Assembly: GCA_945860955.1 (NCBI GenBank)
Contig: CAMATH010000002.1
Coordinates: 23,085 to 87,084 of the forward strand
Source of the DNA: Planctomicrobium piriforme
GTDB taxonomy: Bacteria; Planctomycetota; Planctomycetia; Planctomycetales; Planctomycetaceae
Direction: 5' to 3'
DNA length: 64,000 bases
Position 1 is the stretch's first letter; each line of letters begins with the position of its first letter. Shown here piece after piece: positions 3,219 to 40,526 of this stretch. Both the position numbers and the translations under genes were made by a program. The notes beneath the pieces were generated by a model. It searched no databases, was not told where the DNA came from, and saw nothing but the letters and a program-made list of their open reading frames with translations.

Positions 3219-3224
3219 TCGCGG

Positions 3225-5058: not shown

Positions 5059-5100
5059 TTCGCACGCCCCTGAGCCATTCCTTTGGCTTGACACAACGAT

Positions 5101-5146
5101 CAGCCCATCTCCGGTTATCAGCCGGGGTGGGCTGATTTCGTTCTGT
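5101..5146 (+). terminator. hairpin + T-rich tail between convergent genes
   Basis: cagcccatctccgg / ccggggtgggctg forms an imperfect stem and is followed by atttcgttctgt. It lies directly after the 4456-5058 gene. Confidence 0.5.
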
Positions 5147-5168
5147 GCCAACTCGATCGCAATGGCAG

Positions 5169-6167
5169 CTATTTTGTTCCCGCCAGTTGATGCAGCGTCG
5201 ACTGCGCCGCGACGCGAATTCCCGGCTCGCGAAATGAATCGGAGATCGGCTTCACGACGGACTGCAACTCGGTCTTTTCCGAATCGATCAAGAGTGGAAT
5301 CAGTTGATTGAGCGCCAACAACGAGTTCTTGACCGCCAGGAATTGTGACAATTCGTCGGAATAGCGACTCGCGAACGGCTTGTCTGCGGTCGCGAGGACA
5401 TCTTGCAGTACCGCCAGACCGGAGCGGTCATTGTGGCGGGCCAGCGCGACTGCCGCGTTGACCCGAACATCCAGCGACTCGTCCCCCAACATCACCTTCA
5501 AACGGTTCCTCGCGTCGGCATCGTCAATCAGGCCGAGCGTGTAGGCGGCCGTCAGTCGCATCAGAGCGTCGGCATCCTGCGAGACCCCGACCACCTCCGC
5601 TGTGATCTTCGCGGTGGGAATTGGCTGCTTCCTACGGTTCAGCCGATCGACCATGATGGCGATTGATAACAGGGCGTTTTTTCGCACCTCACGATCGAGT
5701 CCGGGACGCATCGCCTGGCTCAGGATCGGCAGAACCGCATCGGGGGAATCAAGCAGGCCGAATGTCTGCGCGAGAAATGACTGGAATTGCAAATCTTCGG
5801 GACGCTGTCCATTCTTTTCCAGCTCGGACTCCAAGAGATTCGTCATCACCGAAACAAACTCGGGATCGTCGGACAAGTGCTGTCCTTTGTCCCCCAGTTC
5901 CTGATCGGCTTTCAAAATCTGGGCCAGCCCCATCGCACCGCGCCACCGGCGGTGTTCATTGGGATGCTGCAATTCCACGACCAGCCGACGCCAGTCCTGC
6001 TCGGCGGTCGCGACCCGCCCGAACAGCAGCCAGATCCCCACGATGGCGGCAACGATCAGCCCGGGGACGACGAACAACTGCACGATAAACCCCACGGAGG
6101 GGGGGCGAACCGGCGGGAGGTCTTCTGGGAACGGAATTTCTGCGGAGTGCGTGGGTTCAGAGGTCAT
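5169..6167 (-). CDS. HEAT-repeat membrane-anchored protein
   Basis: N-terminal TM (FIVQLFVVPGLIVAAIVGIWLLF) followed by repeated helical units (..VRVNAAVALARHND.., ..LMRLTAAYTLGLIDD..) typical of HEAT/PBS-lyase-like repeats. Confidence 0.6.
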   Translation of the reverse strand: MTSEPTHSAEIPFPEDLPPVRPPSVGFIVQLFVVPGLIVAAIVGIWLLFGRVATAEQDWRRLVVELQHPNEHRRWRGAMGLAQILKADQELGDKGQHLSDDPEFVSVMTNLLESELEKNGQRPEDLQFQSFLAQTFGLLDSPDAVLPILSQAMRPGLDREVRKNALLSIAIMVDRLNRRKQPIPTAKITAEVVGVSQDADALMRLTAAYTLGLIDDADARNRLKVMLGDESLDVRVNAAVALARHNDRSGLAVLQDVLATADKPFASRYSDELSQFLAVKNSLLALNQLIPLLIDSEKTELQSVVKPISDSFREPGIRVAAQSTLHQLAGTK

Positions 6168-6178
6168 AGAATGTCAGT

Positions 6179-6823
6179 CTAGACCTGTTCCCGCTCCGGA
6201 TTCAAGGCTGTCGGCGGCGGATGGCCGGTCCGCAACCGGTCGTAGTCGGCGGGAGTGTCGAGATCGACAAGAATGCCGGGATCGGTGACCGGTAACACAA
6301 CCACGTCGTCGGCATGGCCGCGAACCAAGGCATTGAGGCCTTGATCCGCAGGAAGTCGGGCCACCTCGTCCGCCAAATCCCAACGGAAAAACACCGGATG
6401 TCCCCGCTTTCCCTCGAATTCCGGGACGAGAATCCCGCAATCCCCCTGGTTCCAGCGTACTACGAGACGGCGAAACAGGTCCGGGACCAGCAGCGGATGG
6501 TCTGCGGGGGAGAGAATCCACCCGTCGTTGGGGGCGGGGTGGAATTCACGGTCCATCCAATCGAGAGCGAGTTGAACGCTGTCGCGCATTTCGGGGGGAT
6601 CAGCCTCCGGTTGAAGGGCGATGCCACCTGCCCGACGGACCGTGCTGGCGAGAGCGGTGTCGGTTGGTCGCACGACGACAACACGGGCGGCAACCGCCGG
6701 GTGATCGAAACAGCGCAGTACCTGCTCGACCACCGTATGTTCTCCCCAGGGGAGCAGCAGCTTCGGGCAACCCATCCGTCGACTGTGGCCGGCGGCGGGT
6801 ATGACCACGAACAGTCGGCTCAT
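6179..6823 (-). CDS. MobA/MocA-like nucleotidyltransferase (molybdenum cofactor cytidylyl/guanylyl-transferase family)
   Basis: N-terminal VVIPAAGHSRRMG.PKLLLPWG motif and GHPV motif typical of the family. Overlaps the upstream CDGSH gene by 4 nt. Confidence 0.75.
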   Translation of the reverse strand: MSRLFVVIPAAGHSRRMGCPKLLLPWGEHTVVEQVLRCFDHPAVAARVVVVRPTDTALASTVRRAGGIALQPEADPPEMRDSVQLALDWMDREFHPAPNDGWILSPADHPLLVPDLFRRLVVRWNQGDCGILVPEFEGKRGHPVFFRWDLADEVARLPADQGLNALVRGHADDVVVLPVTDPGILVDLDTPADYDRLRTGHPPPTALNPEREQV

Positions 6824-7038
6824 GTTGTGGGAACCGGGGCGGTTTCGTTACCGACGAAGCCGCTGTTCTTGTGCGCGCCGTCGCAAAACGGCTTGCGACT
6901 CGAGTGGCCGCACCGGCACAGCGCCACGTTCTCCTTTCCCGTGAGATCGTATTTGTTTCCCAGGTGGTCGGTCAGCGTGATGGGACCGGTGACCAGAATG
7001 GAACCGTTTTCGCGAACTTTGATGGTGACGTCAGACAT
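6820..7038 (-). CDS. CDGSH iron-sulfur domain protein
   Basis: Contains the signature CRCGHSSRKPFCDGAH. The likely start is MSDVTIKV (7038). Confidence 0.8.
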   Translation of the reverse strand: MSDVTIKVRENGSILVTGPITLTDHLGNKYDLTGKENVALCRCGHSSRKPFCDGAHKNSGFVGNETAPVPTT

Positions 7039-7157
7039 GAGGGCGGCCTTGCGGAACAAATCGAGCGAATGGGGGAAACAAGAATCGCAACGTTAACAAC
7101 TCTTGCGATGGGCCGTAATCTACCAGAGTTTCGATCTGGGCGTGGCTGTGGTTTCGA

Positions 7158-8558
7158 TCACTCGACTTCAAGTCCAAGGATCGAAACATCGTCGTGGGGG
7201 CCGTTGGGGAGGCTCCAGGCACAGGTCGCTTCGAACAGGGCGTTGACCCCATCTGCGATCGGGGAGCTGGCATGGGTTTCGACGTTTGCCAGCAGTCGAT
7301 CTCCGCCGTACAGCTCCTGGCTGGGACTGAGTGCCTCGTTCACACCATCGGAGTACAGGAACAACCGATCCCCAGGGGCGAGTTCCAAACGGTGTTCTTC
7401 GTATTCGACATCATCCATCCAGCCGACGGGGAAACCGTCTCCTTCCAGAAACGCTGGCTTCCCGCCGCGCGGCACGTGGACGCCCGGTGGATGCCCCGCT
7501 GACACATGCCGGAATTCGCGGGTCTTGGTATTGAGGACACCATACGCGATCGTGAAGTACAGGCCGGCCTGGCTTTCCATGGGAAAGCGGCGGTTGAGTT
7601 CCGCGACGACGGCGGCGGGCGGGGTGACGGCGGATCGGCCGGTGAGCGGGTCGTTCCGGACCAAAAGGGAAGTCGCCGACGCCTGCCCCGTCAGCAATCG
7701 CCCGACCGCGACCGCCAGCAGCGATGATGCCGCCCCGTGGCCGCTCACGTCGACAACAAACATCGCGACGTGCGAATCGTCGAGCGCGATCAGATTCAGA
7801 AAGTCCCCCGCAAGTTCCTCACACGGGGTGAACTGCCACGCGACGCCAATCCGTGGAATCTCCAGTTTGCCATCGGGTAACAGAGATCGCTGCACCCGGG
7901 CGGCGGCCTGCAGGTCGCGACTCATCCGCTCATTGGCGGTCGCGAGCTGGCCGTTCAGCGATTCCAACTGAGCGTTCCACTGCGTCAGTTTCTCCTTGGC
8001 GAGCGTCAGTTGCTCGTTCAGGCGATGCAACTCGCGGTTCTTTTCAACAGCGTTCGCGAATGTCGAAATCAACAGGTTCAAAACCTGCTGCTTACCCGAC
8101 TTCACATGGTAGGTCTTCCCGCCCAGCGTGACCGCCAGCTCGGCACCGTCGTCATGTTCCGAAGTCAGGGGCGTGCTGCGAAGCGCGTCGACGCGGGTCA
8201 AAAGGTAGTTCGTGTCGTACGGCTTCGTGACGTAGTTATCCGCCCCGGCGTCGAGACCACGGATGATGTCCTCTGCCTCAGACAGGGTCGAAAGCAGAAT
8301 CACGGGGACGTTGCGCAGGTTGGGATCCTGCTTGACAGCACGACAGAATTCGTAGCCGGTCACGCGGGGCATCTCGATATCCGAGATGATGACGTCCGGC
8401 TTGCGCTGTCGCGCCAGTTCCAGCGCCTGCCCGCCATCCCCGGCCACGACGACTTCGTAACCCGCCTGCGTCAGTCGGTTCTCCAGAATCTTGGCCTGAA
8501 TCCGACTGTCTTCGGCGATCAGAGCCAGCGGTCGCGCGGTCGTAGCGGGGGAAGTCAT
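7158..8558 (-). CDS. response-regulator receiver + PP2C/SpoIIE (RsbU-like) serine phosphatase
   Basis: REC domain (ALIAEDS...PDVIISDIEMP..). A coiled linker follows. C-terminal PP2C-like motifs are AGDF, FVVDVSGHG, LFLYSDGV and DDVSIL. Confidence 0.85.
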   Translation of the reverse strand: MTSPATTARPLALIAEDSRIQAKILENRLTQAGYEVVVAGDGGQALELARQRKPDVIISDIEMPRVTGYEFCRAVKQDPNLRNVPVILLSTLSEAEDIIRGLDAGADNYVTKPYDTNYLLTRVDALRSTPLTSEHDDGAELAVTLGGKTYHVKSGKQQVLNLLISTFANAVEKNRELHRLNEQLTLAKEKLTQWNAQLESLNGQLATANERMSRDLQAAARVQRSLLPDGKLEIPRIGVAWQFTPCEELAGDFLNLIALDDSHVAMFVVDVSGHGAASSLLAVAVGRLLTGQASATSLLVRNDPLTGRSAVTPPAAVVAELNRRFPMESQAGLYFTIAYGVLNTKTREFRHVSAGHPPGVHVPRGGKPAFLEGDGFPVGWMDDVEYEEHRLELAPGDRLFLYSDGVNEALSPSQELYGGDRLLANVETHASSPIADGVNALFEATCAWSLPNGPHDDVSILGLEVE

Positions 8559-8671
8559 GGCAGGTTCCGTCAGAGTGATTTCGACAGCGGCGGGAATGCG
8601 TGATGGTTCGGTTCAATCGGCGAACTTCATAACGGTCAGCTTCTGAGGTATGAGGTTCGCGAATCCTCCCC

Positions 8672-9775
8672 TCAATCTCGACTCCGGCGGATGCGGTGGG
8701 TCACAGAGACGGCGAGGCGGTCGAGCGGGACGACGGTGTTCGCGAGCTTTTCGTCGATCACCGCTTTCGGCATGCCGTAGACGGTGCAACCCTCGGCATG
8801 TTGCGCGATCACAAACCCGCCACGCTGCCGAATCTCGCGACACCCCGCGAAACCGTCACGCCCCATTCCGGTCATCACCACCGCGAGAACCTGTCCCTGG
8901 TACGCCTCGGCGACAGAACGAAACAGATAGTCGGCGGCGGGTCGGCAGCTCTGTTCGGGAGGATCATCGGTGATGCGCAACCGAACTTTCCCCGCGCGAC
9001 GTTCGACTTTCATATGCCGGCCGCCGGGGGCGATGTAGACGAAACCCGCCTCCGCCGCCATTCCATCGACCCCTTCCACAACTTCCGTCGGACTCACCTG
9101 ATTGAGGCGCTCGGCGAGAGAATGCGTGTATTGCGCGGGCATGTGCTGCACAATGAAGACCGGGACCGGCAGATCGCCGGGCAGATTGGGAATCACTTCC
9201 CGCAGCGCGACAGGCCCACCTGTCGAGGTGGCGATGACCAGCGCTTCGCAACGGAAACCGGTCGGAGCGGCGACGCTCGCATCGCCATCGTCCGCGGCGC
9301 GGCTGGAAGCCGGTTCGAAAGGACGCGCGGGCACTGGCGCTCCCCGTCGGCGGGTGCGACTGCTGGGACTGGCGCGAAACGCTTCGACCTTTTCTGTCAG
9401 AGCGGCCAACAGCGATTCCCGATTCGAAGCGACGTCGTTGCCGCTCGGTTTCTGGATGAAATCAAACGCCCCTTCGAGCAGCGCGTCGGTGGTCACCTGA
9501 GCCCCGTCGGCGGTCAGACTGCTGAGCATCAACGCCCGGGTGCGTAATTTGCGACGTTTCAACTCGCGCAGCACGGCGATCCCGTCGATATCGGGCATAT
9601 GCACGTCGAGCGTGAGCAACTCGGGATCAAGCTGCTCGACCATGTCGAGCGCCTCCTGGCCCCCCTTGGCCGCGCCGATCACTTCGACCCCCGGAACTTC
9701 GCGCAGCACATTCCGCACCAGTTGCCGATAGAGGGCCGAGTCGTCAACGACCAGAATTCGAATCGAGTCTTCCAT
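8672..9775 (-). CDS. cheB: chemotaxis response regulator protein-glutamate methylesterase
   Basis: REC domain (ILVVDDS..) plus a CheB methylesterase domain (IATSTGGP, MPAQYT, GMGRDG). Confidence 0.9.
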   Translation of the reverse strand: MEDSIRILVVDDSALYRQLVRNVLREVPGVEVIGAAKGGQEALDMVEQLDPELLTLDVHMPDIDGIAVLRELKRRKLRTRALMLSSLTADGAQVTTDALLEGAFDFIQKPSGNDVASNRESLLAALTEKVEAFRASPSSRTRRRGAPVPARPFEPASSRAADDGDASVAAPTGFRCEALVIATSTGGPVALREVIPNLPGDLPVPVFIVQHMPAQYTHSLAERLNQVSPTEVVEGVDGMAAEAGFVYIAPGGRHMKVERRAGKVRLRITDDPPEQSCRPAADYLFRSVAEAYQGQVLAVVMTGMGRDGFAGCREIRQRGGFVIAQHAEGCTVYGMPKAVIDEKLANTVVPLDRLAVSVTHRIRRSRD

Positions 9776-10185: not shown

Positions 10186-10665
10186 TTACAGCACCGTCGA
10201 TTCGGAACTTGCGATCTCAATCGTGACCTGCCCGGTGGCCGCGTCCAGTGTCATGCGTCTTCCCTGTTCGCCCCCCAGGTGGCGACCAATGACGGGAATT
10301 CGCAATTCGCCCAGGATTCGTTCGACCGCCTGTGTGTTCATTTCGCCGATCGTAGCAGGTGAACTGGTTGAGTTGAACATGTTCGCTCCCCCGGCGAGTT
10401 TCGCGGTCAGTTTCAAATTCTCCCCAGGCACGACCGCCTGCATCTGCCGGATCAGTTCAGGAAGCGCCGTGTCGGCGTATTTCCCGGGAAGTTCGGGAGT
10501 GCCATTCGCCTTGGGCAATACGATATGCGCCAAACCCGCGACGCGCAGCTTGCGATCGTAAAGGGCGACCCCCAGGCACGATCCTAGCAGGGTGCGCAAC
10601 GCCCCCGTTTCCCGGCAGACGCCGAGTTCACCCATGCGGATCGAGGGTTGAATCTTGGGGGGCAT
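10186..10665 (-). CDS. cheD: chemoreceptor glutamine deamidase CheD
   Basis: Contains LGSCLGVALYD and GLAHIVLP motifs, with the size typical of CheD. Sits in the che operon. Confidence 0.85.
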   Translation of the reverse strand: MPPKIQPSIRMGELGVCRETGALRTLLGSCLGVALYDRKLRVAGLAHIVLPKANGTPELPGKYADTALPELIRQMQAVVPGENLKLTAKLAGGANMFNSTSSPATIGEMNTQAVERILGELRIPVIGRHLGGEQGRRMTLDAATGQVTIEIASSESTVL

Positions 10666-10764
10666 GAGAAGTGCGGGAGGAAGTTCAAAAACTCAATGGC
10701 AAATGTCGAACGAAACTCGACGGCTCGTGGCATCAGGTGGACGCGCTGGATGGCTCGCGCGAGA

Positions 10765-11409
10765 TCACTTCATGCCGAACAGGAGTAGGTTTTCGATGGT
10801 CGTGACGCAGTCGGCGTCGGGGATGAACAACAGGTTCCAGTTGACCGGGGAGCCGTCAATGTGGAATTGGGTCTCCGTCAGAAAGACCAGGTCCGACGCA
10901 GCGGCCTGATTCATCAACGCGAATTGCAGCAGAGATTGCGGATAGTCGTGGGTGAATTGCGGCGGGGAGGGAAGAACCTCATGCGTCGCGGTCCCGTCGT
11001 GGAATGAACGCGACAGCGCGTTCAAATAGGCGCAACCGACAATATTCGCCGTCTCCTGGGCGGCCGACCGCTCGATCTCTCCCCAGGTGGTCGAAGTCCC
11101 CGCAGGCTTCTCCAACAACAGGTCGGCCAAACTCAGCCCGCTGGCATCATCAAACGCGAGAATGAGTTGCCCGGTCACCCGCCCCCGCATCGACATGACG
11201 CACGCCGCGATGGGTGATTCCGAGTCTCCCAGCACCTCCGTCGCGTCGGCGAGCGCCAACTGATCGACCCGTTCGACCGTCATCCGGGCCGGTCGACCCA
11301 ACCAGCGCGACAACGCCGCCGTCGCCTCGGTGGCACCAATGCGAAACAGGTCGGTCAGAGCGGTGAGTTGTTCGGGAGAGAGCATGCGGCGATTCGTTCC
11401 GTGTTCCAA
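10765..11409 (-). CDS. cheC: CheC/CheX-family CheY-P phosphatase-like protein
   Basis: The N-terminal pattern L..L.DLFRIGATEATAALSRWLG resembles CheC-family repeats. Adjacent to cheD. Confidence 0.65.
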   Translation of the reverse strand: MEHGTNRRMLSPEQLTALTDLFRIGATEATAALSRWLGRPARMTVERVDQLALADATEVLGDSESPIAACVMSMRGRVTGQLILAFDDASGLSLADLLLEKPAGTSTTWGEIERSAAQETANIVGCAYLNALSRSFHDGTATHEVLPSPPQFTHDYPQSLLQFALMNQAAASDLVFLTETQFHIDGSPVNWNLLFIPDADCVTTIENLLLFGMK

Positions 11410-11539
11410 TTCGTTTTCGTAGGACGCGTCTCTAACCCGTCCGAATCACGAATTCCGTTTTCGCGATCAACCTTGGTGACTTCCGGCGCGAGTTTGCGGG
11501 TTGAGAGTGAATACTGTGTGGTGTAGGAGGGGGTCTCGC

Positions 11540-11558
11540 GACGGGCCAGAGGCCCGTC
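11540..11558. repeat. GACGGG..CCCGTC hairpin unit (dispersed family)
   Basis: gacgggccagaggcccgtc abuts the cheA stop codon. The 24-nt string gacgggccagaggcccgtcctacg is repeated at 35021-35044. Confidence 0.7.
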
Positions 11559-14102
11559 CTACGAAGAGGAGCCGGCCGTAACCAGTTCCCGTTGGGCCGA
11601 GACGCCGCGAACGTGGACCGCCAGGTCGATGGCCGCCGCCACATCCAGCAGCAGGCAGACCGATCCGTCTCCCAGAATGCTGGCGCCGGAGAGCCCGCGA
11701 ATGTGTACGAAGTTCTCGGCGAGCGATTTGATCACAATGTCCTGGCCGCCGTGCAGTTCGTCGACCCGCAATCCAATCGTCTCGTTCGTCGCCTGCAGAA
11801 TCACGACGTTGACCCGTTTGGCATCCCTGCTGGCGGGAACGGTGTGATTCGTCGTTGGCTCGTGCCAGTCGAACACGTCGTCAATATCGACCAGGGGAAT
11901 GAATTCGCCCCGGACTTCGAACGTGTGTCGACCGTGAATCGTCACAATCTCCGCGAGCGGGACCGAGACAATTTCCCGAACGCCGTCGATGGGGACCGCG
12001 AACATGCCGTGCCGCAGGCGGAACAGCAGACAGCGGATGATCGCCAGCGTGAGCGGCAGTCGAATCGAAATCGTGGTTCCCCGTTCGAGCGCGGTTTCGA
12101 CGCTGATGGTTCCGTTCAGCTCGGCGATGCGGGTCTTCACGATGTCCATGCCGACCCCTCGGCCCGAGATATCGGAAACCACGTCGGCGGTGCTGAAGCC
12201 GGGATGCCAGATGTACTCGATAATCTCGGCATCACCCAATTGAGCCGCGCCGTCGGATGAGATCAGGCCGCGCTCGACAATGCGTTTGCGGATCTTCGCC
12301 GCGTTGATTCCTCCGCCATCGTCGCGGACGTGAATGTAAACGTTGTTGCCGCTATGGACCGCTTCCAGTGTCAGGGTGCCGGCGGCGGGTTTGCCCCGTT
12401 GCACCCGCAGGTCGGCTGGCTCGAGTCCATGGTCGATCGCGTTCCGAACCAGATGCACCAGCGGATCGCCGAGTTCGTCGATCATCCGCTTGTCGAGTTC
12501 GGTCTTTTCGCCATGAATCTCCAGATGGACCTGCTTCCCCAGTTCCTGCGAAATATCGCGGACGACCCGTTTGAACCGGTTGAACAGTGGACCCACCGGA
12601 ACCATCCGCGTGTCGAGAACACCCCGTTGCAGGCTGTCGGAAACGCGGGTCAACTGGTTGACCGCCTCGGTGATTTGCGTGAAGCACCGCCGGCCTTCTT
12701 CCCACAGCCGGGCCTGCGCTTCGACCGCGTCGATTTCCGATTCGAGTTCCAGCAGTTGCTGCGACCATTCGTCGCGTCGACCGTCGGCATCGTCGGCGCG
12801 GTGCGCTTTGAGATCGTCGAACAAGCGACGCATCGTCTCGCCAAACGCGCGGGTTCGTCCCGACTTCTTGAACGCCGGCCCCATCTGGCGAGAGATCTGC
12901 ACGAACCGGGCGTTGGTCACCACCAGTTCACCCGCCAGATTCAACAGATCATCCAGTCGATCAATGTCGACCCGCACGGTTTCGACGACCCGGGCTTTGT
13001 GTTCCGCGTCGGGAGTTTCCCCGGCATTGGCACCGGCGGCCGCCGCGATGTCGCGCGAATCGGGAATCGGTTTGTCGGCCGCCGAAGGTTTCGCGACGGG
13101 TTGTGACACCGGCGTTGGAGTGGACGGAGCCGCCGCGGAAGGCGCGACGACAACCGCCGCTTCTGCGAGGTCCGACTCACTTGCATCAGACGTCGCTTCC
13201 GCGAGGACGGTCCGATCCAACTCAAGCGGCTGCGAGTCGCGATCCATCTCGACCAGTTCAACACCCCCGACGTCGGCGGCGGCGCGCAGCTCGGCCGCCG
13301 GACGATCGCTCGCTACCAAAACCTGCAAGCGATGACCGTCGGCGACGGTCGCGAGATGCTCTCGATCGGGCTCGGATCTGCGGATCTCGCTCAGGTCGGC
13401 GAGCCGCGCCAGAATCAATTCCGCCTTCAGGTCGGCCAATTGCAGCGTCGACTCGAAGCGGACGGTGATTCGCCAGTGATACGTCCCGTGCGAAGCGGCG
13501 CGTTCCTTCTTGGACTCCACCGTAGCGACGGCCGGCGTTTCCAACTGTGGTTCCGCGGGAGGCGCGACGGGTGTCTCGACGATGGACTCTTCGACTCGTG
13601 CGACGACCAGCGCGGGTTCAGAGACCGGCTCGGGGGCCACCGATTCGTGAATCGCGGGCGAAGCGCCGGGCGGCTCGGCCTCCCGGGGCGTGGCGACATG
13701 CCGCCCGAGTTCCTCAAGCAGTTCGGGAGCGCTTGCCAGCGCCTGCCCATTGCGCAGCCGGGTGTTGCATTCGCGCAGAAAATCGATGCAGCGCAGAACC
13801 AGATCCATCATGGGACCGTCGAGGATCTGCATGCCCGAGCGAATGCGTTCGAAATGATTCTCCAGGTGATGGGTCAGCACGGTGATGCTGTCCAGCCCCA
13901 TCATCGCCGACGATCCCTTGATCGAATGGATCAGTCGAAACGCTTCGTTATGGTTCCCCTTGTGAGTCGGGTTCCCCTCCAATGCCAACAGCGTTTCGAC
14001 CAGAGCGTCGAGCTGCTCGGCGGTCTCGTCGAGGTACATCTGAAGGTAGGTGGCCATCTCCTCGGAGGGGAGGCCGGTCGAGAAACTGAATTCGTCACTC
14101 AC
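11559..14102 (-). CDS. cheA: chemotaxis histidine kinase CheA
   Basis: HPt domain (FRLIHSIKGSSAMMG), a long Pro/Ala/Glu-rich linker, a dimerisation/HATPase domain (DHGLE, GRGVGMD) and a C-terminal CheW-like domain. Confidence 0.9.
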   Translation of the reverse strand: MSDEFSFSTGLPSEEMATYLQMYLDETAEQLDALVETLLALEGNPTHKGNHNEAFRLIHSIKGSSAMMGLDSITVLTHHLENHFERIRSGMQILDGPMMDLVLRCIDFLRECNTRLRNGQALASAPELLEELGRHVATPREAEPPGASPAIHESVAPEPVSEPALVVARVEESIVETPVAPPAEPQLETPAVATVESKKERAASHGTYHWRITVRFESTLQLADLKAELILARLADLSEIRRSEPDREHLATVADGHRLQVLVASDRPAAELRAAADVGGVELVEMDRDSQPLELDRTVLAEATSDASESDLAEAAVVVAPSAAAPSTPTPVSQPVAKPSAADKPIPDSRDIAAAAGANAGETPDAEHKARVVETVRVDIDRLDDLLNLAGELVVTNARFVQISRQMGPAFKKSGRTRAFGETMRRLFDDLKAHRADDADGRRDEWSQQLLELESEIDAVEAQARLWEEGRRCFTQITEAVNQLTRVSDSLQRGVLDTRMVPVGPLFNRFKRVVRDISQELGKQVHLEIHGEKTELDKRMIDELGDPLVHLVRNAIDHGLEPADLRVQRGKPAAGTLTLEAVHSGNNVYIHVRDDGGGINAAKIRKRIVERGLISSDGAAQLGDAEIIEYIWHPGFSTADVVSDISGRGVGMDIVKTRIAELNGTISVETALERGTTISIRLPLTLAIIRCLLFRLRHGMFAVPIDGVREIVSVPLAEIVTIHGRHTFEVRGEFIPLVDIDDVFDWHEPTTNHTVPASRDAKRVNVVILQATNETIGLRVDELHGGQDIVIKSLAENFVHIRGLSGASILGDGSVCLLLDVAAAIDLAVHVRGVSAQRELVTAGSSS

Positions 14103-14118: not shown

Positions 14119-15042
14119 CTAGGATTTCTGATAGGCGAAGGTCGAACGCTTCACCAGTGGAGAGAGCATGTCATAAATCCCTTCGGATGGCCCGACGACC
14201 AGGTACCCCCCCGGAGCCAGCGCATTCACCAGGTTGTTGATCACCACCTGCTTCGACGCCCGGTCGAAATAGATCAGCACGTTGCGAATGAAGATGCAGT
14301 CGAACGGCGGCAGCTTCAGTGGCTCCATCAGATTGTGTCGGCGAAACTCCACCATCTCGCGGAGCGCCGGCCGCACCGTGTATGTCGCGTCGTCGGCCGA
14401 CGCGTCGAATTGTCGCCTCAACCTCGATTCCGAAACTTCGTCGAGCGACCGCTTCTTGTACGTTGCGACCCGCGCGTCGCGCAGGACCGCTTCGCTGATG
14501 TCGGTCCCGACGATTGTCGTCTTCCAGCCGTGCAGCTTGATCGACGACTCCTGCACGCAGATGGCGATGGAATACGCCTCTTCTCCTGTGCTGCACGCCG
14601 CCGACCAGACCCGCAGTTTCTTGGAAAGCGCTCCGGCCTGAGGACGCTGCACCAGCTCGTCGAGAAATTCCCCCTTGAACCAGTCAAAGTGATGCGGAGT
14701 GCGGAAGAAGTACGTCTCGTTCGTTGTGACCGCATCGAGAAACTGTTCCAGTTCACCCGCACCGGCGGCCGAATTCAGGAACTTGTAGTAGGCGTCGAAA
14801 TCGGCCTGCTGACAGGCCTTCAGCCGCCTGCGGATCCGATTGCTCACCAGCGTGACCTTCGCCAGGTCGACGCGGATCCCGCTGTGCCGGTAGATGAACT
14901 CCCGGAACAGTTCGAACTGCCGCGTCGACAGCTTATCGGGCTCCATCGGCTGGGTCTGAATCGCGATGAGCGGCATGAGAAAACTCCCTCGGCGACACCG
15001 GCTGCCGGTTGCGGGCGTCGCCATGGAACGGGGACCAGTCAC
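14119..15042 (-). CDS. cheR: chemotaxis protein methyltransferase CheR
   Basis: Contains FELFREFIYRHSGI, TNETYFFR, VWSAACSTGEE and FCRNVLIYF-like (IFIRNVLIYF) motifs. The true start is possibly internal (MPLIAIQ or MEPDKL). Confidence 0.9.
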   Translation of the reverse strand: MTGPRSMATPATGSRCRRGSFLMPLIAIQTQPMEPDKLSTRQFELFREFIYRHSGIRVDLAKVTLVSNRIRRRLKACQQADFDAYYKFLNSAAGAGELEQFLDAVTTNETYFFRTPHHFDWFKGEFLDELVQRPQAGALSKKLRVWSAACSTGEEAYSIAICVQESSIKLHGWKTTIVGTDISEAVLRDARVATYKKRSLDEVSESRLRRQFDASADDATYTVRPALREMVEFRRHNLMEPLKLPPFDCIFIRNVLIYFDRASKQVVINNLVNALAPGGYLVVGPSEGIYDMLSPLVKRSTFAYQKS

Positions 15043-21600: not shown

Positions 21601-22141
21601 CGTTCTGGATCTCCAGGTAGTAGTTGTCGCCAAACACCCGGCGGTACCACGCCACCACGTTCTCGGCTTCGTCCATCCGTTCGCCGAGAATCATGTTGGA
21701 GAGTTCTCCCGCCGCGCAACCTGACAGGCAGATCAGCCCTTCGCTGTGGGCTTCGAGAACCTCTTTGTCGATGCGGGGTTTGTAGTAGAACCCTTCGAGA
21801 AAGGCGATCGACGACAGCTTGATGAGGTTTTTGAAACCGGTCCGGTTTTTCGCCAGCAGTGTGAGGTGAAAGCTCGCCTCTTTCATGCGGGCGGCGTCCT
21901 TCACCCGGCGGTCGCCCGGAGCGATGTACGCCTCGTACCCCAGAATCGGATTGATCCCCGCCTCTCTGCACTTCTGGTAGAACTCCAGCGCGCCGTACAG
22001 ATTGCCGTGATCGGTGAGGGCGAGCGCCGTCATCCCGTTCGCCTTCGTCTTCTTCACCAGTTCCGGAATCCGGTTGGCACCATCCAGCAGGCTGTAGTGC
22101 GAGTGAACGTGCAGGTGACAGAACGGGCGGTCCGTGGGCAT
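18623..22141 (-). CDS. dnaE: DNA polymerase III alpha subunit
   Basis: PHP domain start FCHLHVHSHYSLLDG and long collinear similarity to DnaE. I place the start at ATG 22141 (MPTDRPF). The 86-codon upstream extension in the ORF track overlies a dispersed repeat. Confidence 0.95.
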   Translation of the reverse strand: MPTDRPFCHLHVHSHYSLLDGANRIPELVKKTKANGMTALALTDHGNLYGALEFYQKCREAGINPILGYEAYIAPGDRRVKDAARMKEASFHLTLLAKNRTGFKNLIKLSSIAFLEGFYYKPRIDKEVLEAHSEGLICLSGCAAGELSNMILGERMDEAENVVAWYRRVFGDNYYLEIQNAGLDIQKRCADGTVDLANRMGIPLVATNDAHYLNQEDACWHDVLLCVNTHSLRSDEKRMKMTGDQFFIRTPDEMYSAFPGFEDAVARTQEIANGVDIDLDLKKRHFPVFKAPEGKTDVEYLRELCNEGLKWRYGDNPGKDVLDRLEYELGVITRMGFSSYFLIVWDFARFARENGIPALARGSACGAIVAFLLGLSNVCPLKYDLLFERFLDPNRAEAPDIDIDFCRDRRGMVLDYVKQKYGKDNVAQIGTFGTLGAKAVIRDVARALALPLDRADAVAKSVPMELHITLEEALESGADLKAAYEADPMVREVIDFGMKLEGLAKSAGTHAAGVVIADSPLTDYVPLQKVSGRDDVTTQWPMADVEKAGLLKMDFLGLRNLTILDKAVQNVKKVRGLELDPLTFPLDDEATFRLLQRGETKGIFQLEGGGIRDLLTKMKPDSFADIIATSALYRPGPLEGGMVMTYVNVKHGVEPIPKVHPVVDDILNETYGVMVYQEQVMRILNRLGGIDLSKAYACIKAISKKKLETIAKGREDFVKGAQERGMAGAEAENLFGLIEKFAGYGFNKSHSTAYAAIAYQTAYLKAHYPVEFMAALLTCGMEDTDRIYEHVDDCRRMKIKVLAPDLNKSDVEFGVDGDSLTFGMAAIKGVGEGAVTAIVKARQKGGPFKDLFDLCERVDTKQVSKGVLEILIRAGGLDSFGPDRNQHLAMVDRAIQAAASRARDKAAGQKSLFGGDDDKKPGAAPQPSIVLPDVPPMTQAEKLAAEKEVFGFYLTSHPLMEHAAKLQLYASHYSCDLATCAEGAQIRLGGMISSIKRTNTKKPSRNGHTRYANFDFEDVKGNMRCIMWPEDFAKYGEQVKTETICFIEGRVDKRGREPNLVVDSLITLEEADKRFTDQVAIKFQREMHRPEDFDGVRNILQKYPGRCDVAIVIESFDEVNPSLKFRYILAPGPNMKVSPSPNLATELQNVLGPGNVQFVATPKKRGSMNRQS

Positions 22142-22240
22142 CGACAGATCCGTTATCGTGGGGGAGGAACGCGAAGAGTTGCGGGCGGGATCCTGAACAG
22201 GATCCGAGTCCCGATTGTACCGAGCCGACAGAAGATGGCG

Positions 22241-22420
22241 TAGCCCTCCGCAACGTAGCCCGCACTCTCCAAGTGCGCGGCCCGCTGTGCGATCTCCGTC
22301 GCACGACGCCCTCGGGGTCTGGCGCAACCTCACAAGCTCGCCGTCCTTCGCGAACTGACTTGGCCCCCGTCGTGGCTTTGCCTCTTCGCCGCGACTCACC
22401 TCGCGCCACGAAACCCCCGT
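22241..22420 (-). repeat. ~175-nt dispersed repeat, copy 1 (dnaE upstream region)
   Basis: The reverse complement aligns by eye at roughly 80% identity with 37625-37797. Shared blocks include cggcgaagaggcRaagccMcgac, ttgtgaggttgcgccag and cgcacagcgggccgcgcacttggagagtgcgggctac. Confidence 0.75.
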
Positions 22421-22502
22421 AACGTGTTTTCACCCACGCGCATTCGTGCTTGCCAAGAGCGATCCGTCGAGCGCATCCCACGGTTCGAAAGAAAGAAGTT
22501 TT

Positions 22503-22590
22503 GACAGGATGAAGAGGATGAAAGGGATGAACAGGATGGAGTTGCGTGCCATTCAGGCTCTCTGGCTAAGAACCCGTCGAAGATCAATTT
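22503..22590 (+). repeat. GGATGAA-iteron repeat, single arm
   Basis: gacaggatgaagaggatgaaagggatgaacaggatggagt is identical to the reverse complement of 40419-40458. The flanking ~45 nt are also similar. Confidence 0.8.
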
Positions 22591-22682
22591 CGTGGTTTGT
22601 GAAAGTCTTCGGACAAAACGAATCACCGGCGGTTGACCAATGGCGGCGGTCAGGTGACATCGAATCCCGTGATGCGCGTCTA

Positions 22683-22967
22683 CCCCGTAGGGGTTTTATA
22701 GCAAATCCCAGGGTTGGTCGAGCGCAGCGAGACCTACCCTGGGTCACTCGACGAACCGATTCATACCCTGAAAGGGTTTCATCGGGGGCGAATGAGTGAA
22801 TCAAGCCATCAATGGTTCAGGGATTCGTTCCGGAATTCGACGAGCTGTTCCTTCGTGTGGCCGTGATCGAACCCTTTCAGGGTACGGCTCGGTGACGATT
22901 CAAAAACCCAGGGTAGGTCTCGCTCCGCTCGACCAACCCTGGGCTATGGGATCCAACCCCGTTGGGG
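22683..22967. repeat. large imperfect palindrome (two ~100-nt arms, each made of three small hairpins)
   Basis: Left arm is ccccgtagggg...cccagggttggtcgagcgcagcgagacctaccctggg...accctgaaagggt. Its reverse complement recurs at 22865-22967. The centre is ~80 nt. Confidence 0.8.
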
Positions 22968-23044
22968 TAAATTCAATGCCACCGCGAAAGTGCCGAACGT
23001 GATCGAAGCCTCGCTCCGGATCTACCGGCAGTCGGTTTTGGCAG

Positions 23045-23400
23045 TTCGCCCGGAGTGGTGAATGAGATCCTCGCTCTGTCAGACAAGATCGGCGTCAAGT
23101 GAAACCGTCCGGATCGCAAGGCAATTGGTCGCCAATTGTCGCGCGAACACGGGATGCATTCATTCCTCGCAAAAAGCACGACGTCGCAGGTGGTGCCCAT
23201 TGATTGGCTTCTGACGTCGTGTGTGGCAGACAGAGCGAAGATCTGATTCACCATCCACACGAGGTGGATGGGGTCTGGACCGCGCAATGGGGATTGAGAC
23301 TAGCCATCGATCTTTCTCCCCATCCGCTCCAGGCGGATGGGGCCGTCGCCAACACCCGCCGCCGTTCGGTTTTCGCGAAACCCCATCCGACTCGGGCGCG
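23045..23400. repeat. REP-like cluster / ~350-bp composite repeat, copy B
   Basis: Collinear with 225-590. Inverted arms are 23057-23096 vs 23213-23273. Palindromic units ccatccacacgaggtggatgg and ccccatccgctccaggcggatgggg are present. Confidence 0.8.
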
Positions 23401-23601
23401 ATGTCACGTTTTCGGCCGCGTGGAGTCGTATCCCCCTCCGATCGGACGACGACTCCACCCAGGCTTGAATCAAATGTACACTATCTCGATCGAGCGCCCG
23501 TACACCTGCGGCCGCTCCGCCGTGCGCTGCGTCGCGAGGGGCGTCGGCTCGCTGAGGCTCGCTGCGCCACCCCTCGGACTCCGCTCCCGGCTCCGCTCGG
23601 T

Positions 23602-26600
23602 TCACTTGAACTTGCCTGGCCCCTGCTTGCGGGACGAACTGAGGGCCACACGGAAGCCCAGGTCGTAGTTGCGGTCGTCGGGCGAGAACCAGATCCGGCT
23701 CGCCGACTGGCAGATCCAGGCGGAGAGCCTCCAGCAACCGCCCCGGATCACCCGGGACGAGCCCTCGGAACTCCATAGGTCCGCGCACCATTCCCACACG
23801 TTGCCCGCCATGTCCTCCAGACCGAAGTCGGCGGACCGGGACCGCGGGAAGATGCCGACCGGCGACGTCACCTCCAAACCCGCTTCGCGACTATTGCAGA
23901 TTCCGGTCTCCCATTGATCCCGGCCACCCCACGGATAATCGAGCGCCAACCGACCCCGGGCCGCCGCTTCCCATTCCCGCTCACTCGGCAATCTGCCCCC
24001 TACCCAGTTCGCGAACGCCTCGGCTTCATAAAACGAAACCCCCACCACCGGCTGGTTCGGCAGATTCCATTTGCCGTCGTGCCAATACTTTGGCTCGATC
24101 ACACCATTCTCCTCGCGCCAGTTCCACCCCTCCGCCGACCACCATTCCCGCTGTGTGTAGCAACCCACTGCGATGAACAATTCGTATTGAGCGTTCGTCA
24201 CCGGATACTTCGACAGCCAGAACGGTGCCCGCACCTCAAAGTCACAAGTCGCAAGGGCCAAGTCGTCATAGTCGTATCTCTTTTTCAACTCGGCGCATAG
24301 CTCGTCGTCTCCCACGCGATACGTCCCGGCGGGAATCTCCACGTACGCGGCCCGGTCCCTCAAATCGGTCACAATGCGCGGGTCGCCCATGTAGCCCAGC
24401 GTCGCCGCCAGATCGTACCGCGCTCGTAGTGGCACTTCCCTTTCGATCGCCGCGACGCAATACCGTCGAAACTTCTCTTCCAGTTCCCCTTTCAGCCGCA
24501 AGCCCCGCTTGAGCAGAATCTGCAGGCAGTCGGCCACCACCAGCGACACACCCAGCGTCTCGGGACTCAGTCCGTCGACCAATTCCCCCAACAGCGCGAT
24601 GCTCCGCTCGGGCGACGAGCGCTTCGCCAACTGCGACCCGAACACAAACGACAGAGTACTCCGCCACTCCGGCGCGCTCCCCCGGTCTCGAAACACCTCC
24701 ACCAGCCGATCTTCGCACACGTCCAACAACCGCTGCGCGGCCAGGTAATCCTGAATCGTCAGATGATAAAAGCCGGCCCGTTGGTCCCCCTGCGGCAACA
24801 GCAACCCGGTGTGCGTCAAGAGTTGCTCGCGGGCGGCGACCGCGCCGGTAAACCCCGCTTCCGTCCACGACGTTTTGTCCTGATACGCCTGGATCATCTT
24901 GTCGACTTCCGCCCAAGTCGCCTGCGCCTGTGGCGTCGCGCGTGTTTCCCCCAACCCTTCCCCTGTGTGCATGCCGTACGCCACCACCGCCAGCCGATTG
25001 CGGACCAATTCGATCACCGTGCGCTCTTGCGGAAAACGGTTGAACAGCACGTTGTCGACAATGCGGTCGTAGACGTCGTGCCGATCTTGCGGCAGTCGCC
25101 CCCCTTCGCTGTACACAATGCATATCGCCGTCAGCAGCATGGGGTTGGCGATCAACGCCGACAGGTCGTCGCGCAGCGCCACGTGCCGGAGCATCTGTTC
25201 GGCGGTCTCGGCGGCCCGCGACGGGTTGTCGATCAGACAATGAAACCAGCGGCGAACCAACAGCTCGCGGAGCGGCTCGTCGAGTTCAGCGAGCGGAGCC
25301 GACCGCAACCCGAGCCGGGGGGCTTGTTCGCTGCCCACACCATAATTGCGACTGGTGAGCAGCACCCGGTGGCCGCGCGTGGTCCAGGGCTTGACCGCCG
25401 CGATCAGCCCTTCGAGCAGCATGGCCCGCGGCTGGCAGGGGTTGGTTGGCGAGCCGTGCGACAAGGGGACTTCGTCGAGTCCGTCGAGCAATAACAACAG
25501 GGAACCGCGAGCGAGATGGGGGCCGACAATCGCGCCATCGATTCCGGCGGGACGGGTGGCGTTGGCCCAGCGCAGGAGCGAGTCCTCCAGCTCCTGTTGA
25601 GAGATCTGCGCCACGCCGGGATTAAGCGGCAGGTACTGCCAGAAATCGCGCAACCGCACGAGGAGCGGCAACCGCCCAGCGAAGGAGACAGGAAGTTCGT
25701 CGGCGTATCCCTCGGGGGCGGGGACCGGAGTCTCGGGGAGACTTCCCGTGCAGGCGAGCCAGGCGACCCAGCGACAGAACGTCGATTTCCCGGTACCGGC
25801 GGCCCCTGCGACGTACAGCGATTCGGAGTCGAGCAGTTTGAGCAGGAGCTGCGGCGGTTGTTTCTGATCTTCGCCGCTAAGGACAGGTTCTTCGCGGACA
25901 AGTATCGCGGGATTACTACGGTCCCTTTGATCGGCGGGCAGGGTTGTCAGTGGGACATACACGTGATTCAGTTTGACCGACTGCCCCTGTCGCAGCTTGA
26001 GTCCGAGCAAGCCGACGTCAGCACAGGAGTCCCGCAGGCGGTCGAGATAGTCGCGGGGGATCGAAGCGGGAGTGGTTTCGAGATCGTCGCCAGATAAGCG
26101 GGCGTGTGCCACATGTTTGGGGCGGGGTGGCAAATCGTGGCACTTTGTGCGTAATGTCTGGATCAGTTCCTTCAAATCGTTTCCATAGTCGTCGGTCCGT
26201 AAACGGACCGCCTGAATCGATGCGAGACGTTCGAGTCCGACATTGCGGAGCCAAGCCTCGGACGGCATCTCAGCGGAGTTCAACCGCAGCGGGATCACGA
26301 TGGTTTTCTTCTCGGCCTCGCGGTCGAGGCCGAGCGTCACTTCCCGCCGAACCCAGTCCTTCGGGTCGTGTAACCGGGGAAATCCCTCCATCGGCCCCGT
26401 TTTGAATGTCACGCTCTTCCACAGCGGACCGATTGCAACCAGCAGCACACGACACGTTTGCAGGTTGTCCTGGATCACCTTGGACCAGTCGTCGCCTCCC
26501 TGGATTCCCGTCTTATCGCGAAACACCACGGTCGGCCCAAACTCGGCCGCCAAGTCTCGTTCGAGAGGAGCGACGACGTCGTTCGCGTCGTCAATGCGAT

Positions 26601-26616
26601 AACTGATGAAGATCAT
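23602..26616 (-). CDS. TIR-like domain / NACHT (STAND) NTPase / HEAT-like segment / FGE-sulfatase (SUMF1)-like domain protein; candidate NLR-like immune sensor
   Basis: TIR-like N-terminus: MIFISYRIDD..VVFRDK..WVRREV. Walker A GAAGTGKST (25780-25806), Walker B LLLLLDGLDE (25471-25500), VLLTSR and NPMLL motifs. C-terminal FGE-like motifs: YPVTNAQY, GGRLPSEREWE, YPWG, GNVWEWC, RGGCW, LGFRV (about 23641-24348). Confidence 0.85.
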   Translation of the reverse strand: MIFISYRIDDANDVVAPLERDLAAEFGPTVVFRDKTGIQGGDDWSKVIQDNLQTCRVLLVAIGPLWKSVTFKTGPMEGFPRLHDPKDWVRREVTLGLDREAEKKTIVIPLRLNSAEMPSEAWLRNVGLERLASIQAVRLRTDDYGNDLKELIQTLRTKCHDLPPRPKHVAHARLSGDDLETTPASIPRDYLDRLRDSCADVGLLGLKLRQGQSVKLNHVYVPLTTLPADQRDRSNPAILVREEPVLSGEDQKQPPQLLLKLLDSESLYVAGAAGTGKSTFCRWVAWLACTGSLPETPVPAPEGYADELPVSFAGRLPLLVRLRDFWQYLPLNPGVAQISQQELEDSLLRWANATRPAGIDGAIVGPHLARGSLLLLLDGLDEVPLSHGSPTNPCQPRAMLLEGLIAAVKPWTTRGHRVLLTSRNYGVGSEQAPRLGLRSAPLAELDEPLRELLVRRWFHCLIDNPSRAAETAEQMLRHVALRDDLSALIANPMLLTAICIVYSEGGRLPQDRHDVYDRIVDNVLFNRFPQERTVIELVRNRLAVVAYGMHTGEGLGETRATPQAQATWAEVDKMIQAYQDKTSWTEAGFTGAVAAREQLLTHTGLLLPQGDQRAGFYHLTIQDYLAAQRLLDVCEDRLVEVFRDRGSAPEWRSTLSFVFGSQLAKRSSPERSIALLGELVDGLSPETLGVSLVVADCLQILLKRGLRLKGELEEKFRRYCVAAIEREVPLRARYDLAATLGYMGDPRIVTDLRDRAAYVEIPAGTYRVGDDELCAELKKRYDYDDLALATCDFEVRAPFWLSKYPVTNAQYELFIAVGCYTQREWWSAEGWNWREENGVIEPKYWHDGKWNLPNQPVVGVSFYEAEAFANWVGGRLPSEREWEAAARGRLALDYPWGGRDQWETGICNSREAGLEVTSPVGIFPRSRSADFGLEDMAGNVWEWCADLWSSEGSSRVIRGGCWRLSAWICQSASRIWFSPDDRNYDLGFRVALSSSRKQGPGKFK

Positions 26617-26928
26617 GGCCCCTCGCGCGGTGGTCGTACACAGGTCAATCGGATCGAAGGCGGAAATTCAAGATACCAAGCGCCACCGGCGGCCACAAAC
26701 AATCTCGGACTCGCGTTCCGGTTCCTCGCCGGAGTTCGCGTTGAGTCTTCAAGCGGCGATTGTCCAGACCAGTGATCACGCCGTTGGGCCGAAGCTGGGA
26801 GGGGACTCTGTCCCCCCAGACCCCCCCTGGGATTTTCTGAGGCATGGGTCCAGTGTCCAATGGAATTACCGCGAGTGGGGAGAATCCGGACTTTCACTGA
26901 ACGGCCGGAAACAACACAGTTTCGGGGA

Positions 26929-26980
26929 GCCGCGCCGGTCGGGAAGCGGTATCAAACTCACGCTTCCTGACCGGCGCGGC
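26929..26980. repeat. long near-perfect hairpin in the spacer upstream of the TIR-NACHT gene
   Basis: gccgcgccggtcgggaagcg (26929-26948), a 12-nt loop, then cgcttcctgaccggcgcggc (26961-26980). This is a 20-bp stem with one mismatch and no clear U-tract on either strand. Confidence 0.7.
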
Positions 26981-27234
26981 TTCGTCAAAACGTCTCAAAG
27001 TGGACCGCACGGAGTACCACGTGAATTGTCTCGATTGGTCCCGAACGCGGCATCAACTGGCGCGTGACGGTTGCTGACGTTTCGACGATGTAGAAACGCC
27101 TGCGTTTGGCGGTCGGCTTGGCGAAGACGGGGAGTTATCGCTCGATCATTCCGAATCTCTCGATCAGCACTTTCAGATCGCCACCGATCTGGGTGTCGGG
27201 ACTGCCACTGGCGGCGCGAATCCCCTGCGCAAGT

Positions 27235-40304: not shown

Positions 40305-40458
40305 GACAGGATGAAAGGGATGAAGAGGATGGACAGGATTGCTGAAGCGACTGTCGAACCTGTGGATTTGGAGGCTTTCGATTTCAGCCACTTTTCCAGA
40401 GAGCAGGAATGGCGAACGACTCCATCCTGTTCATCCCTTTCATCCTCTTCATCCTGTC
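40305..40458. repeat. GGATGAA-iteron inverted repeat pair flanking a ~79-nt core (MITE-like)
   Basis: Left arm is gacaggatgaaagggatgaagaggatggacaggat (40305-40339). Right arm is actccatcctgttcatccctttcatcctcttcatcctgtc (40419-40458). The right arm plus its flank recurs at 22503-22590. Confidence 0.8.
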
Positions 40459-40526
40459 AAATTCTTTCCGTCTGTCGTACGCACAATGACGGCTGCGGTC
40501 GTTCCGTTTCAGTTACCGCCGTCACC

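Follow-up and report, generated by a model that had tools for sequence, protein, structure and literature searches.

A solitary planctomycete TIR-NACHT-FGE gene that probably encodes an NLR-like receptor with a retroelement-type hypervariable patch

Gene and domain architecture

We analyzed a 64,000-nucleotide (nt) stretch of planctomycete DNA (the window, meaning this whole stretch), which corresponds to positions 5404-69403 of the 153.7-kb Planctomycetota metagenome contig k141_39531 (ENA ERZ27280294), for a gene that encodes a TIR-NACHT-FGE protein (FGE, formylglycine-generating enzyme). An earlier interpretation made from the letters alone (the sequence-only reading) had described this gene as a single minus-strand open reading frame (ORF) of 1004 aa at 23602-26616, and this is exactly what we found, with ATG as the start codon and a product identical to P0001. 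All positions are window coordinates, and the gene is read on the minus strand; FGS below denotes the FGE-sulfatase domain.

23602..26616, minus strand: whole gene, 1004-aa TIR-NACHT-FGE(FGS) protein (single ORF, Pfam, AlphaFold2 model)
26137..26616, minus strand: TIR domain, SARM1-like, aa 1-160 (Pfam TIR_2, PDB profile search, Foldseek)
25825..26136, minus strand: linker and pre-NACHT helical region, aa 161-264 (model confidence, motif conservation)
25207..25824, minus strand: NACHT NTPase core, aa 265-470 (Pfam NACHT, invariance, Foldseek)
24397..25206, minus strand: winged-helix and helical modules past the NTPase, aa 471-740, ending in LGxxGDPR (model)
23635..24396, minus strand: FGE-sulfatase/C-type-lectin-fold domain, non-catalytic, aa 741-994 (Pfam, PDB sequence matches, Foldseek)

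We found that the TIR_2 (aa 2-151, E 3.5e-11, 44.1 bits against a cut-off of 28), NACHT (E 9.6e-9, 35.7 bits against 26.7) and FGE-sulfatase (aa 757-991, E 1.8e-50) domains each exceed the Pfam curated cut-offs, the last being single, C-terminal and placed after the NACHT-helical module. Profile searches of the PDB and Foldseek structure searches agree with these three assignments, which had first been made from motifs; the motifs quoted then all lie at the positions given for them, with Glu at residue 92 and Lys at residue 277. The AlphaFold2 model of the full-length protein, built from an input of 64 relatives, has a mean predicted local distance difference test (pLDDT) score of 90 and a predicted TM-score of 0.76.

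Within the TIR domain, F3, R7, D34, W88 and E92 are invariant among 14 TIR-type relatives. Searching the PDB with the single TIR sequence gave nothing useful and a family profile was needed; with the profile of 14 TIR domains, the TIR domain of the NAD+ hydrolase SARM1 was the best PDB match over the whole domain (E 4e-11), and DWVRRE aligned to DWVHKE of SARM1. Hence, the invariant E92 sits on the SARM1 catalytic glutamate, which we take to be E642, consistent with the title of PDB 7CM7 ('Sarm1 E642A'). SARM1 was likewise the best structural match, since the isolated TIR model (pLDDT 92) reached a Foldseek TM-score of up to 0.82 with it, followed by plant TIRs of nucleotide-binding leucine-rich repeat (NLR) receptors and AbTir. 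The two TIR domains share ~18-20% sequence identity, and they differ in placement: in SARM1 the TIR lies at the C-terminal end of the chain in an ARM/SAM context, whereas here it is N-terminal to a NACHT switch.

The linker that follows is partly disordered in the model (pLDDT <50 at aa 167-180 and 234-247), and the pre-NACHT region holds the conserved motif LLGLKL..GQSVKLN..VYVPL. The NACHT core carries Walker A (GAAGTGKST, with K277), Walker B (LLLLLDGLDE, with D378, D381 and E382) and VLLTSR (with R423), and G276, K277, D378, G379, D381, E382 and R423 are invariant across 64 relatives. Foldseek with the central module returned NOD2 (5IRL, E 3.4e-11) and NLRP3. Residues 471-740 are all-helical in the model and close with the invariant LGxxGDPR motif. 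The sequence-only reading had called this LGYMGDPRI segment HEAT-like; the motif is indeed invariant in the family, but no HEAT model in Pfam matches the protein. For the FGE domain, PDB sequence matches were EgtB, pFGE, FGE and TvpA, and Foldseek matches were EgtB, pFGE, FGE and CalU17.

Loss of the FGE catalytic site

Aligning the protein to Thermomonospora curvata FGE (GGSFLCHESYC), we found that the FGE catalytic Cys pair, GGS(F/Y)xCHxSYC, is not retained: the position of the first copper-binding Cys is L964, and that of the second is C969, which is A, V or R in relatives. A check of this pair had been proposed on the basis of the letters, and it comes out as degenerate. Hence, the name given by sources, 'SUMF1/EgtB/PvdO family nonheme iron enzyme', is misleading. 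By this alignment, the domain appears to have lost FGE catalysis, which fits a binding role over an enzymatic one.

The source annotation ('nonheme iron enzyme' or 'formylglycine-generating enzyme') would make the protein an enzyme, and partial NCBIfam matches to EgtB and SenA go with that name. However, these matches fall far below their cut-offs (EgtB, 125.8 bits against 360; SenA, 107.3 against 420) and their alignments cover the FGE-like half only; relative to the sulfoxide synthases EgtB, OvoA and SenA there is no full-length match. The EgtB-type N-terminal (iron-binding) domain was not detected by Pfam, the would-be active site coincides with a hypervariable patch, and Leu964 together with the varying second position speaks against catalysis. 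We therefore regard an enzymatic function as highly improbable. The case also shows that public naming of the whole family as an iron enzyme hides it from defense-system surveys.

A hypervariable patch at the former active site

The key property of the putative sensor, which the sequence-only reading had overlooked, is a hypervariable patch of the type written by diversity-generating retroelements (DGRs).

23650..23754, minus strand: DGR-type variable region, aa 955-989 (entropy profile, codon table, TvpA alignment, family templates)

Among the 14 full-length TIR-type relatives, a near-invariant scaffold (R955, R958, G959, G960, W962, R974, P979, R982 and G987-R989) alternates with positions that are hypervariable by entropy (963-965, 967-968, 973, 975-978, 980-981 and 983-985). 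Relative to the orthologue L001 (82% identical), 48% of the amino acids differ in the patch (aa 953-985), compared with 15% in the remaining FGE domain (aa 741-952) and 4% in the NACHT-helical region (aa 265-740). Moreover, 9 of 33 patch codons differ from L001 at two or more nucleotides, whereas the position-3 divergence of the NACHT region is only 0.16 per codon. Relative to the orthologue L002 (71%), changes per patch codon are more frequent at position 1 (0.58) and position 2 (0.45) than at position 3 (0.36). Variable codons of the patch are often NNC, and codon 976 is TGG, AGG and GGG in three orthologues.

TvpA of Treponema denticola is a lipoprotein. It is an FGE-fold DGR variable protein (PDB 2Y3C), and the alignment of the C-terminal 42 residues, which takes in its variable region and the patch, has no gaps, with an RGGxW...LGFR scaffold that frames the variable positions in both proteins. 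Unlike the protein studied here, the 294-residue PDB chain of TvpA has no TIR or NACHT domains.

Templates in the family carry AAC, AAT or AGG at the variable patch codons. With these templates of relatives rather than a cognate template, we found that the window differs from L002 at 18 of 19 template-adenine sites but at only 18 of 62 other sites (p = 3e-7), and from L001 at 11 of 17 template-adenine sites compared with 15 of 64 others (p = 0.002). In 3 of 4 clusters of relatives that are >90% identical and come from different metagenomes, the patch holds about one-third to one-half of the variable columns. From the concentration at adenine sites and the multi-nucleotide codon changes, we conclude that adenine-directed mutagenesis acted in the clade after the orthologues split. 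Taken together, the alignments and codon counts indicate that the patch is, by descent, a variable region of the DGR type whose sequence in this clade was shaped by mutagenic retrohoming directed at adenines.

Retroelement parts in relatives and the 3' side of the gene

Several relatives carry DGR parts next to the gene. In L009/L010 (1004-aa TIR-NACHT-FGE, 41% identical), a template repeat starts 157 nt past the stop codon and encodes VRVVRGGSWNNNSRNARSAIRNRNTPDN; the 11 positions at which it mismatches the variable region are all adenines in the template, within which these contigs break. L011 (DUF4062-NACHT-FGE, 50% identical over the core), the closest metagenomic relative, lies on a 280-kb contig with the variable region at 10330-10469 and a template repeat ~290 nt downstream at 10762-10901, and 11 of 12 mismatches are at adenines. 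We found no reverse transcriptase within ±8 kb of L011, whose neighbors encode a PQQ beta-propeller protein, a DUF4432 protein and a Zn-peptidase. The L011 template may thus depend on a reverse transcriptase encoded far from it.

L022 holds a complete DGR cassette (1379-9770) with two NLR-like targets, in the order TIR-NACHT-FGE (variable region 4613-4746), template (4923-5059), RVT_1 (5332-6441), bAvd (6533-6919) and NACHT-FGE (variable region 9629-9758). Grouped together as loci with a template and a reverse transcriptase in cis, L022 and L009 are thus better experimental entry points than the gene studied here.

Contig ends of relatives also cluster in this region: those of L001, L006-L010, L013, L026 and L039 break in the variable region or ~85-330 nt past the gene, and the L001 break falls exactly at the patch. 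A template repeat of nearly the same sequence at that point, or hypervariability in the population, would fit such breaks.

Three non-coding features adjoin the gene.

23497..23601, minus strand: conserved structured element, a long imperfect hairpin directly 3' of the stop codon (conservation, RNAalifold)
22139..23496, no strand: non-coding spacer to dnaE (repeat searches, template scan)
26617..26910, minus strand: conserved non-coding leader/promoter region (similarity to L001)

The 3' hairpin (~105 nt) is kept in L002 (10760-10858) and L020 (1433-1545), and its first half in L091 (12956-13015), although the proteins of those relatives are only 50-71% identical. RNAalifold predicts 31 pairs, 7 of them with compensatory changes. 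We saw the hairpin only in the clade that has no cis template repeat; it may act as a terminator or as a structure at the DGR target site. A sub-threshold Rfam match of the hairpin to RT-13 (E 0.17) was not reproduced in the L002 and L020 elements and was set aside as chance. The direct repeat D3 (23489-23515 and 23938-23964) was considered as a template with its variable region and also rejected as chance: its mismatches show no specificity for adenines, and it is absent from the dedicated template scans.

An accessory gene with exchangeable effectors

On the minus strand, the order of genes is uvrA, an esterase/exo-endo-phosphatase fusion gene, a 618-nt gap, the TIR-NACHT-FGE gene, ~1.46 kb without genes and dnaE, followed past dnaE by a glycosyltransferase gene and a chemotaxis operon. 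No tRNA gene and no Rfam family was found in the window. The two gaps and the unrelated neighbors of relatives bear out the earlier statement that the gene has no operon partner.

The orthologues L001, L002, P0004 (65%) and L091 (61%) each lie in entirely different neighborhoods. L002 and L091 come from one metagenome-assembled genome (MAG; GCA_046152955.1), which thus carries at least two paralogues. Hence, from the differing neighborhoods and the paralogues, the gene is accessory and mobile, and with its swapped N-terminal effector it is not a universally conserved single-copy housekeeping gene; had it been one, that would have spoken against the NLR-type interpretation.

A word-indexed protein search returned 460 proteins at E <= 1e-10, and an exhaustive one, for which aa 181-741 (the NACHT-helical core) served as the query, returned 198 clusters (50% identity) at E <= 1e-30; named matches are mostly proteins of Planctomycetota MAGs. 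The NACHT-FGE core is 40-60% identical across the family and the N-terminus varies: among the top 120 matches, it is DUF4062 in 34, TIR_2 in 17, SIR2_2 in 15, Metallophos in 10, CHAT in 1 and PF19961 in 1.

Exchange is visible even between close orthologues. Relative to L001, 45% of the residues of the TIR module (aa 1-160) differ and its position-3 divergence is 0.61 (near-saturated), compared with 0.16 for NACHT, whereas both flanks of the module are ~92-97% identical. A divergent TIR between near-identical flanks points to replacement of the TIR module by recombination.

The leader, the 294 nt 5' of the ATG, is 91.8% identical to L001 (8354-8644), with ~97% identity over the proximal ~180 nt, and so is more conserved than the synonymous sites of the gene. 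It is non-repetitive, its similarity to L001 stops at ~26910, and it may be a promoter or regulatory region. As a structured RNA it found no backing, with a non-significant fold z-score (+1.07) and no Rfam match. A 94-aa ORF that overlaps the start codon (26613-26897) was considered as a coupled small gene and rejected, as it has an in-frame stop in L001. The leader, the ORF of the receptor and the 3' hairpin move as one unit.

A probable receptor with a remotely diversified or frozen patch

We conclude that the gene product is probably an NLR-like receptor formed by a single chain, which belongs to the 'antigen-receptor (FGS) type' of bacterial NACHT proteins and has a DGR-shaped patch that is either a remote target or frozen. 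The FGE/C-type-lectin-fold domain would bind a ligand, most likely an invader-derived molecule, through the ~35-residue patch on the former active-site groove. Binding would then free the NACHT NTPase for NTP-dependent oligomerization, and the oligomerized N-terminal SARM1-like TIRs would cluster into composite NADase sites. This cluster would hydrolyze NAD+ or make an NAD-derived signal, and the infected cell would be stopped or killed. In proposing an NLR-type sensor, the sequence-only reading holds up: profile searches support its domains, and the orthologues do not behave as a housekeeping gene. The domains, invariant catalytic residues, loss of FGE catalysis, variable patch and effector swapping come from the comparisons above, and the remaining mechanism we infer from established NLR, bNACHT, Avs and SARM1 biology.

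Several points weigh against this conclusion. NADase activity, oligomerization, the ligand and phage protection all belong to the inferred part. An adenine-aware ungapped scan of the window plus its extensions L004 and L005 (together ~75 kb of the contig) found no patch-compatible template; its best candidate was compatible at 78 of 114 positions, equal to background, compared with 81 of 81 for the positive control L009. Sensitive blastn with the FGE 3' region likewise gave no template repeat within the window, and no reverse transcriptase was found in the window by a motif scan or by Pfam on the called genes and remaining ORFs. Ordinary positive selection on the same ligand-contact codons could also concentrate differences at template-adenine sites; multi-nucleotide codon changes at low divergence argue for a mutagenic burst and fall short of proof. 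No defense genes flank the gene: where the sequence-only reading had envisaged an accessory island, it sits among housekeeping genes (uvrA, dnaE and the chemotaxis operon) and not in a defense island. Finally, PADLOC, which had been suggested as a check, gave only weak matches in the TIR region (best E 1.8e-5) and no system-level or STAND match.

With no template or reverse transcriptase in ~75 kb, the patch is either a remote target or frozen, and ongoing diversification is unproven. The gene also shows that receptors of the TIR-NACHT-FGE kind can occur as solitary genes far from any DGR.

A frozen receptor is a real possibility, though we would not call it probable. The lineage would have lost its DGR, perhaps when mobile repeats invaded the spacer, and the patch would now be a fixed-specificity, innate-type sensor under ordinary mutation. 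The templates of relatives lie 157-290 nt past the stop codon and here there is none in that stretch, the spacer past the hairpin carries repeats that look like miniature inverted-repeat transposable elements (MITEs) together with a palindrome, and L002, P0004 and P0025 likewise have no nearby reverse transcriptase. Patch codons such as AGG, CAG and TGG depart from the NNC pattern. However, point mutation alone could hardly have produced, over the time available, a patch that is 48% divergent from an orthologue with a 96% identical NACHT region and has two or more changes in 9 of 33 codons.

The divergence at template-adenine sites after the split of the orthologues speaks for an active remote target, where a DGR at some other place in the genome would rewrite 23650-23754 in trans and yield a population repertoire of specificities, with the 3' hairpin as a possible target-site structure. 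We consider this possible but somewhat doubtful. The L001 contig breaks exactly at the patch, the clade without a cis template shares the conserved hairpin, the L011 template with no reverse transcriptase within 8 kb makes trans-acting enzymes plausible in the family, and diversification of remote targets in trans has been reported (PMC10907252). However, the ~75 kb scanned hold no compatible template, the P0001 cluster has a single member and hence no population variants, and several position-3 differences in the patch mean that any templates must also differ between lineages.

Extending the remote arrangement, solitary NLR-like receptors of Planctomycetes may form a distributed repertoire that DGRs drive, in which one remote reverse transcriptase serves many scattered TIR/SIR2/DUF4062-NACHT-FGS genes, some with a private template (as in L011) and others with only the 3' hairpin as a homing signal. 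We think this rather unlikely; if true, innate immune receptors would be diversified across the population in an adaptive-like manner.

The same receptor logic might also serve purposes other than antiviral defense, such as recognition of kin or self, regulated cell death within aggregates or the detection of a metabolite made by the cell itself. The gene has housekeeping genes around it and no defense island, such systems have been tied to multicellular or aggregating lifestyles (Kaur et al., PMC7159879; Dore et al., PMC10907252), and we found no phage-protection data for FGS-type NACHT proteins in the accessible portions of the literature. Yet other bacterial NACHT proteins protect against phage (10.1101/2022.07.19.500537), and the swapped effectors (TIR, SIR2 and phosphoesterase) match the conflict-associated effector domains of those papers, which makes a role outside defense quite unlikely in our view.

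Relation to known systems

The receptor architecture had been described before, which the sequence-only reading overlooked, so that its claim to novelty was overstated: NACHT with a C-terminal FGS domain is a named class, and DGR-diversified NACHT proteins with C-type-lectin (CLec) domains and TIR have been reported. In the accessible part of their text, Kibby et al. (bioRxiv 10.1101/2022.07.19.500537) set apart, among bacterial NACHT proteins, an 'antigen-receptor type' that carries an FGS domain and for which they propose DGR diversification; there, FGS-type members appear in the classification and discussion and not among the tested proteins. The likeness lies in an N-terminal effector, a NACHT NTPase and a single C-terminal FGE-sulfatase-fold domain as the proposed DGR-diversified binding module. 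We found the features of this type here, namely NACHT with Walker A, Walker B (DGxDE) and TSR, a C-terminal FGS domain and a variable effector, although the type is proposed to be DGR-diversified and this gene has no DGR in cis. In the literature as far as its text was accessible, we found no experimental characterization of any FGS-type NACHT protein.

FGS domains and DGRs were discussed in the setting of conflict systems by Kaur et al. 2020 (PMC7159879). Dore et al. 2024 (PMC10907252) described DGR-diversified NACHT/nSTAND-CLec targets of multicellular bacteria, some of which begin with a TIR domain, and they also reported loci that are incomplete and remote targets diversified in trans. These targets resemble our protein in a central NACHT/nSTAND, a C-terminal variable CLec/FGE domain and sometimes a TIR, and L022 is a complete example of such a locus. 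They were identified via the reverse transcriptase, whereas here neither reverse transcriptase nor template lies within ~75 kb; the present gene differs further in its planctomycete MAG host and in being solitary among housekeeping genes.

The antiviral STAND NTPases (Avs) share the tripartite logic of effector, STAND and sensor. According to the accessible text of Lee et al. 2026 (PMC13581612), TPR-like repeats make up the majority of STAND sensors, FGE-sulfatase sensors occur among defense-associated STAND clades, and the characterized Avs7, Avs8 and Avs10-21 sense conserved phage proteins.

Since comparative genomics has already described the class, the locus adds a member to a computationally defined kind. 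With its SARM1-like TIR effector, it serves as a clean example of high confidence, though one that specialists would hardly find surprising. If a retroelement rewrites the binding surface of NLR-type receptors, these would be the nearest counterpart in bacteria to antigen receptors that are diversified somatically.

Flanking repeats and minor elements

Repeat-rich non-coding DNA had been reported on both sides of the gene. This is true of the downstream spacer, with its dispersed repeat, palindrome and small repeat; the upstream 294 nt are the non-repetitive leader. The dispersed repeat (~350 nt, 23052-23394) has a second copy in the window at 236-582 with 87% identity and terminal inverted repeats at 23056-23097 and 23212-23253, and it looks MITE-like. 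A smaller dispersed repeat of 75 nt (89% identity) lies at 22491-22565 and 40396-40468.

The spacer palindrome (~290 nt, 22681-22969) is nested and folds strongly as RNA (-179.5 kcal/mol, z = -14.3). No homology at the level of BLAST, including BLAST against plasmids, and no Rfam family was found for it. It shares eight short motif blocks, in conserved order, with ~190-nt palindromic repeats of the Thiodictyon plasmid pTs485 (L092), a gammaproteobacterial plasmid; the shared blocks are CCCCAACGGGGT, AGCCCAGGG, CCCTGGGT and CCCTGAAAGGG plus their mirror images. The plasmid repeats lie at 11394-11583, 14261-14450 and 4853-5045; one of them is 36 nt past a NACHT-FGE gene, and an integrase and IS91 unit has one on either side. 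A family member on the Thiodictyon plasmid adjoins a second paralogue, an integrase gene, an IS91 transposase gene and toxin-antitoxin genes.

Upstream, the interval from the esterase gene to the leader boundary holds a 21-nt inverted repeat (95% complementary, 12-nt loop) at 26928-26981, which may act as terminator for the esterase gene or mark the border of the inserted unit. The 3' hairpin of the paralogue P0005 in L091 is interrupted by a compact group II intron (~13016-13750; Rfam matches RF02001 at 13135-13304 and RF00029 at 13672-13745).

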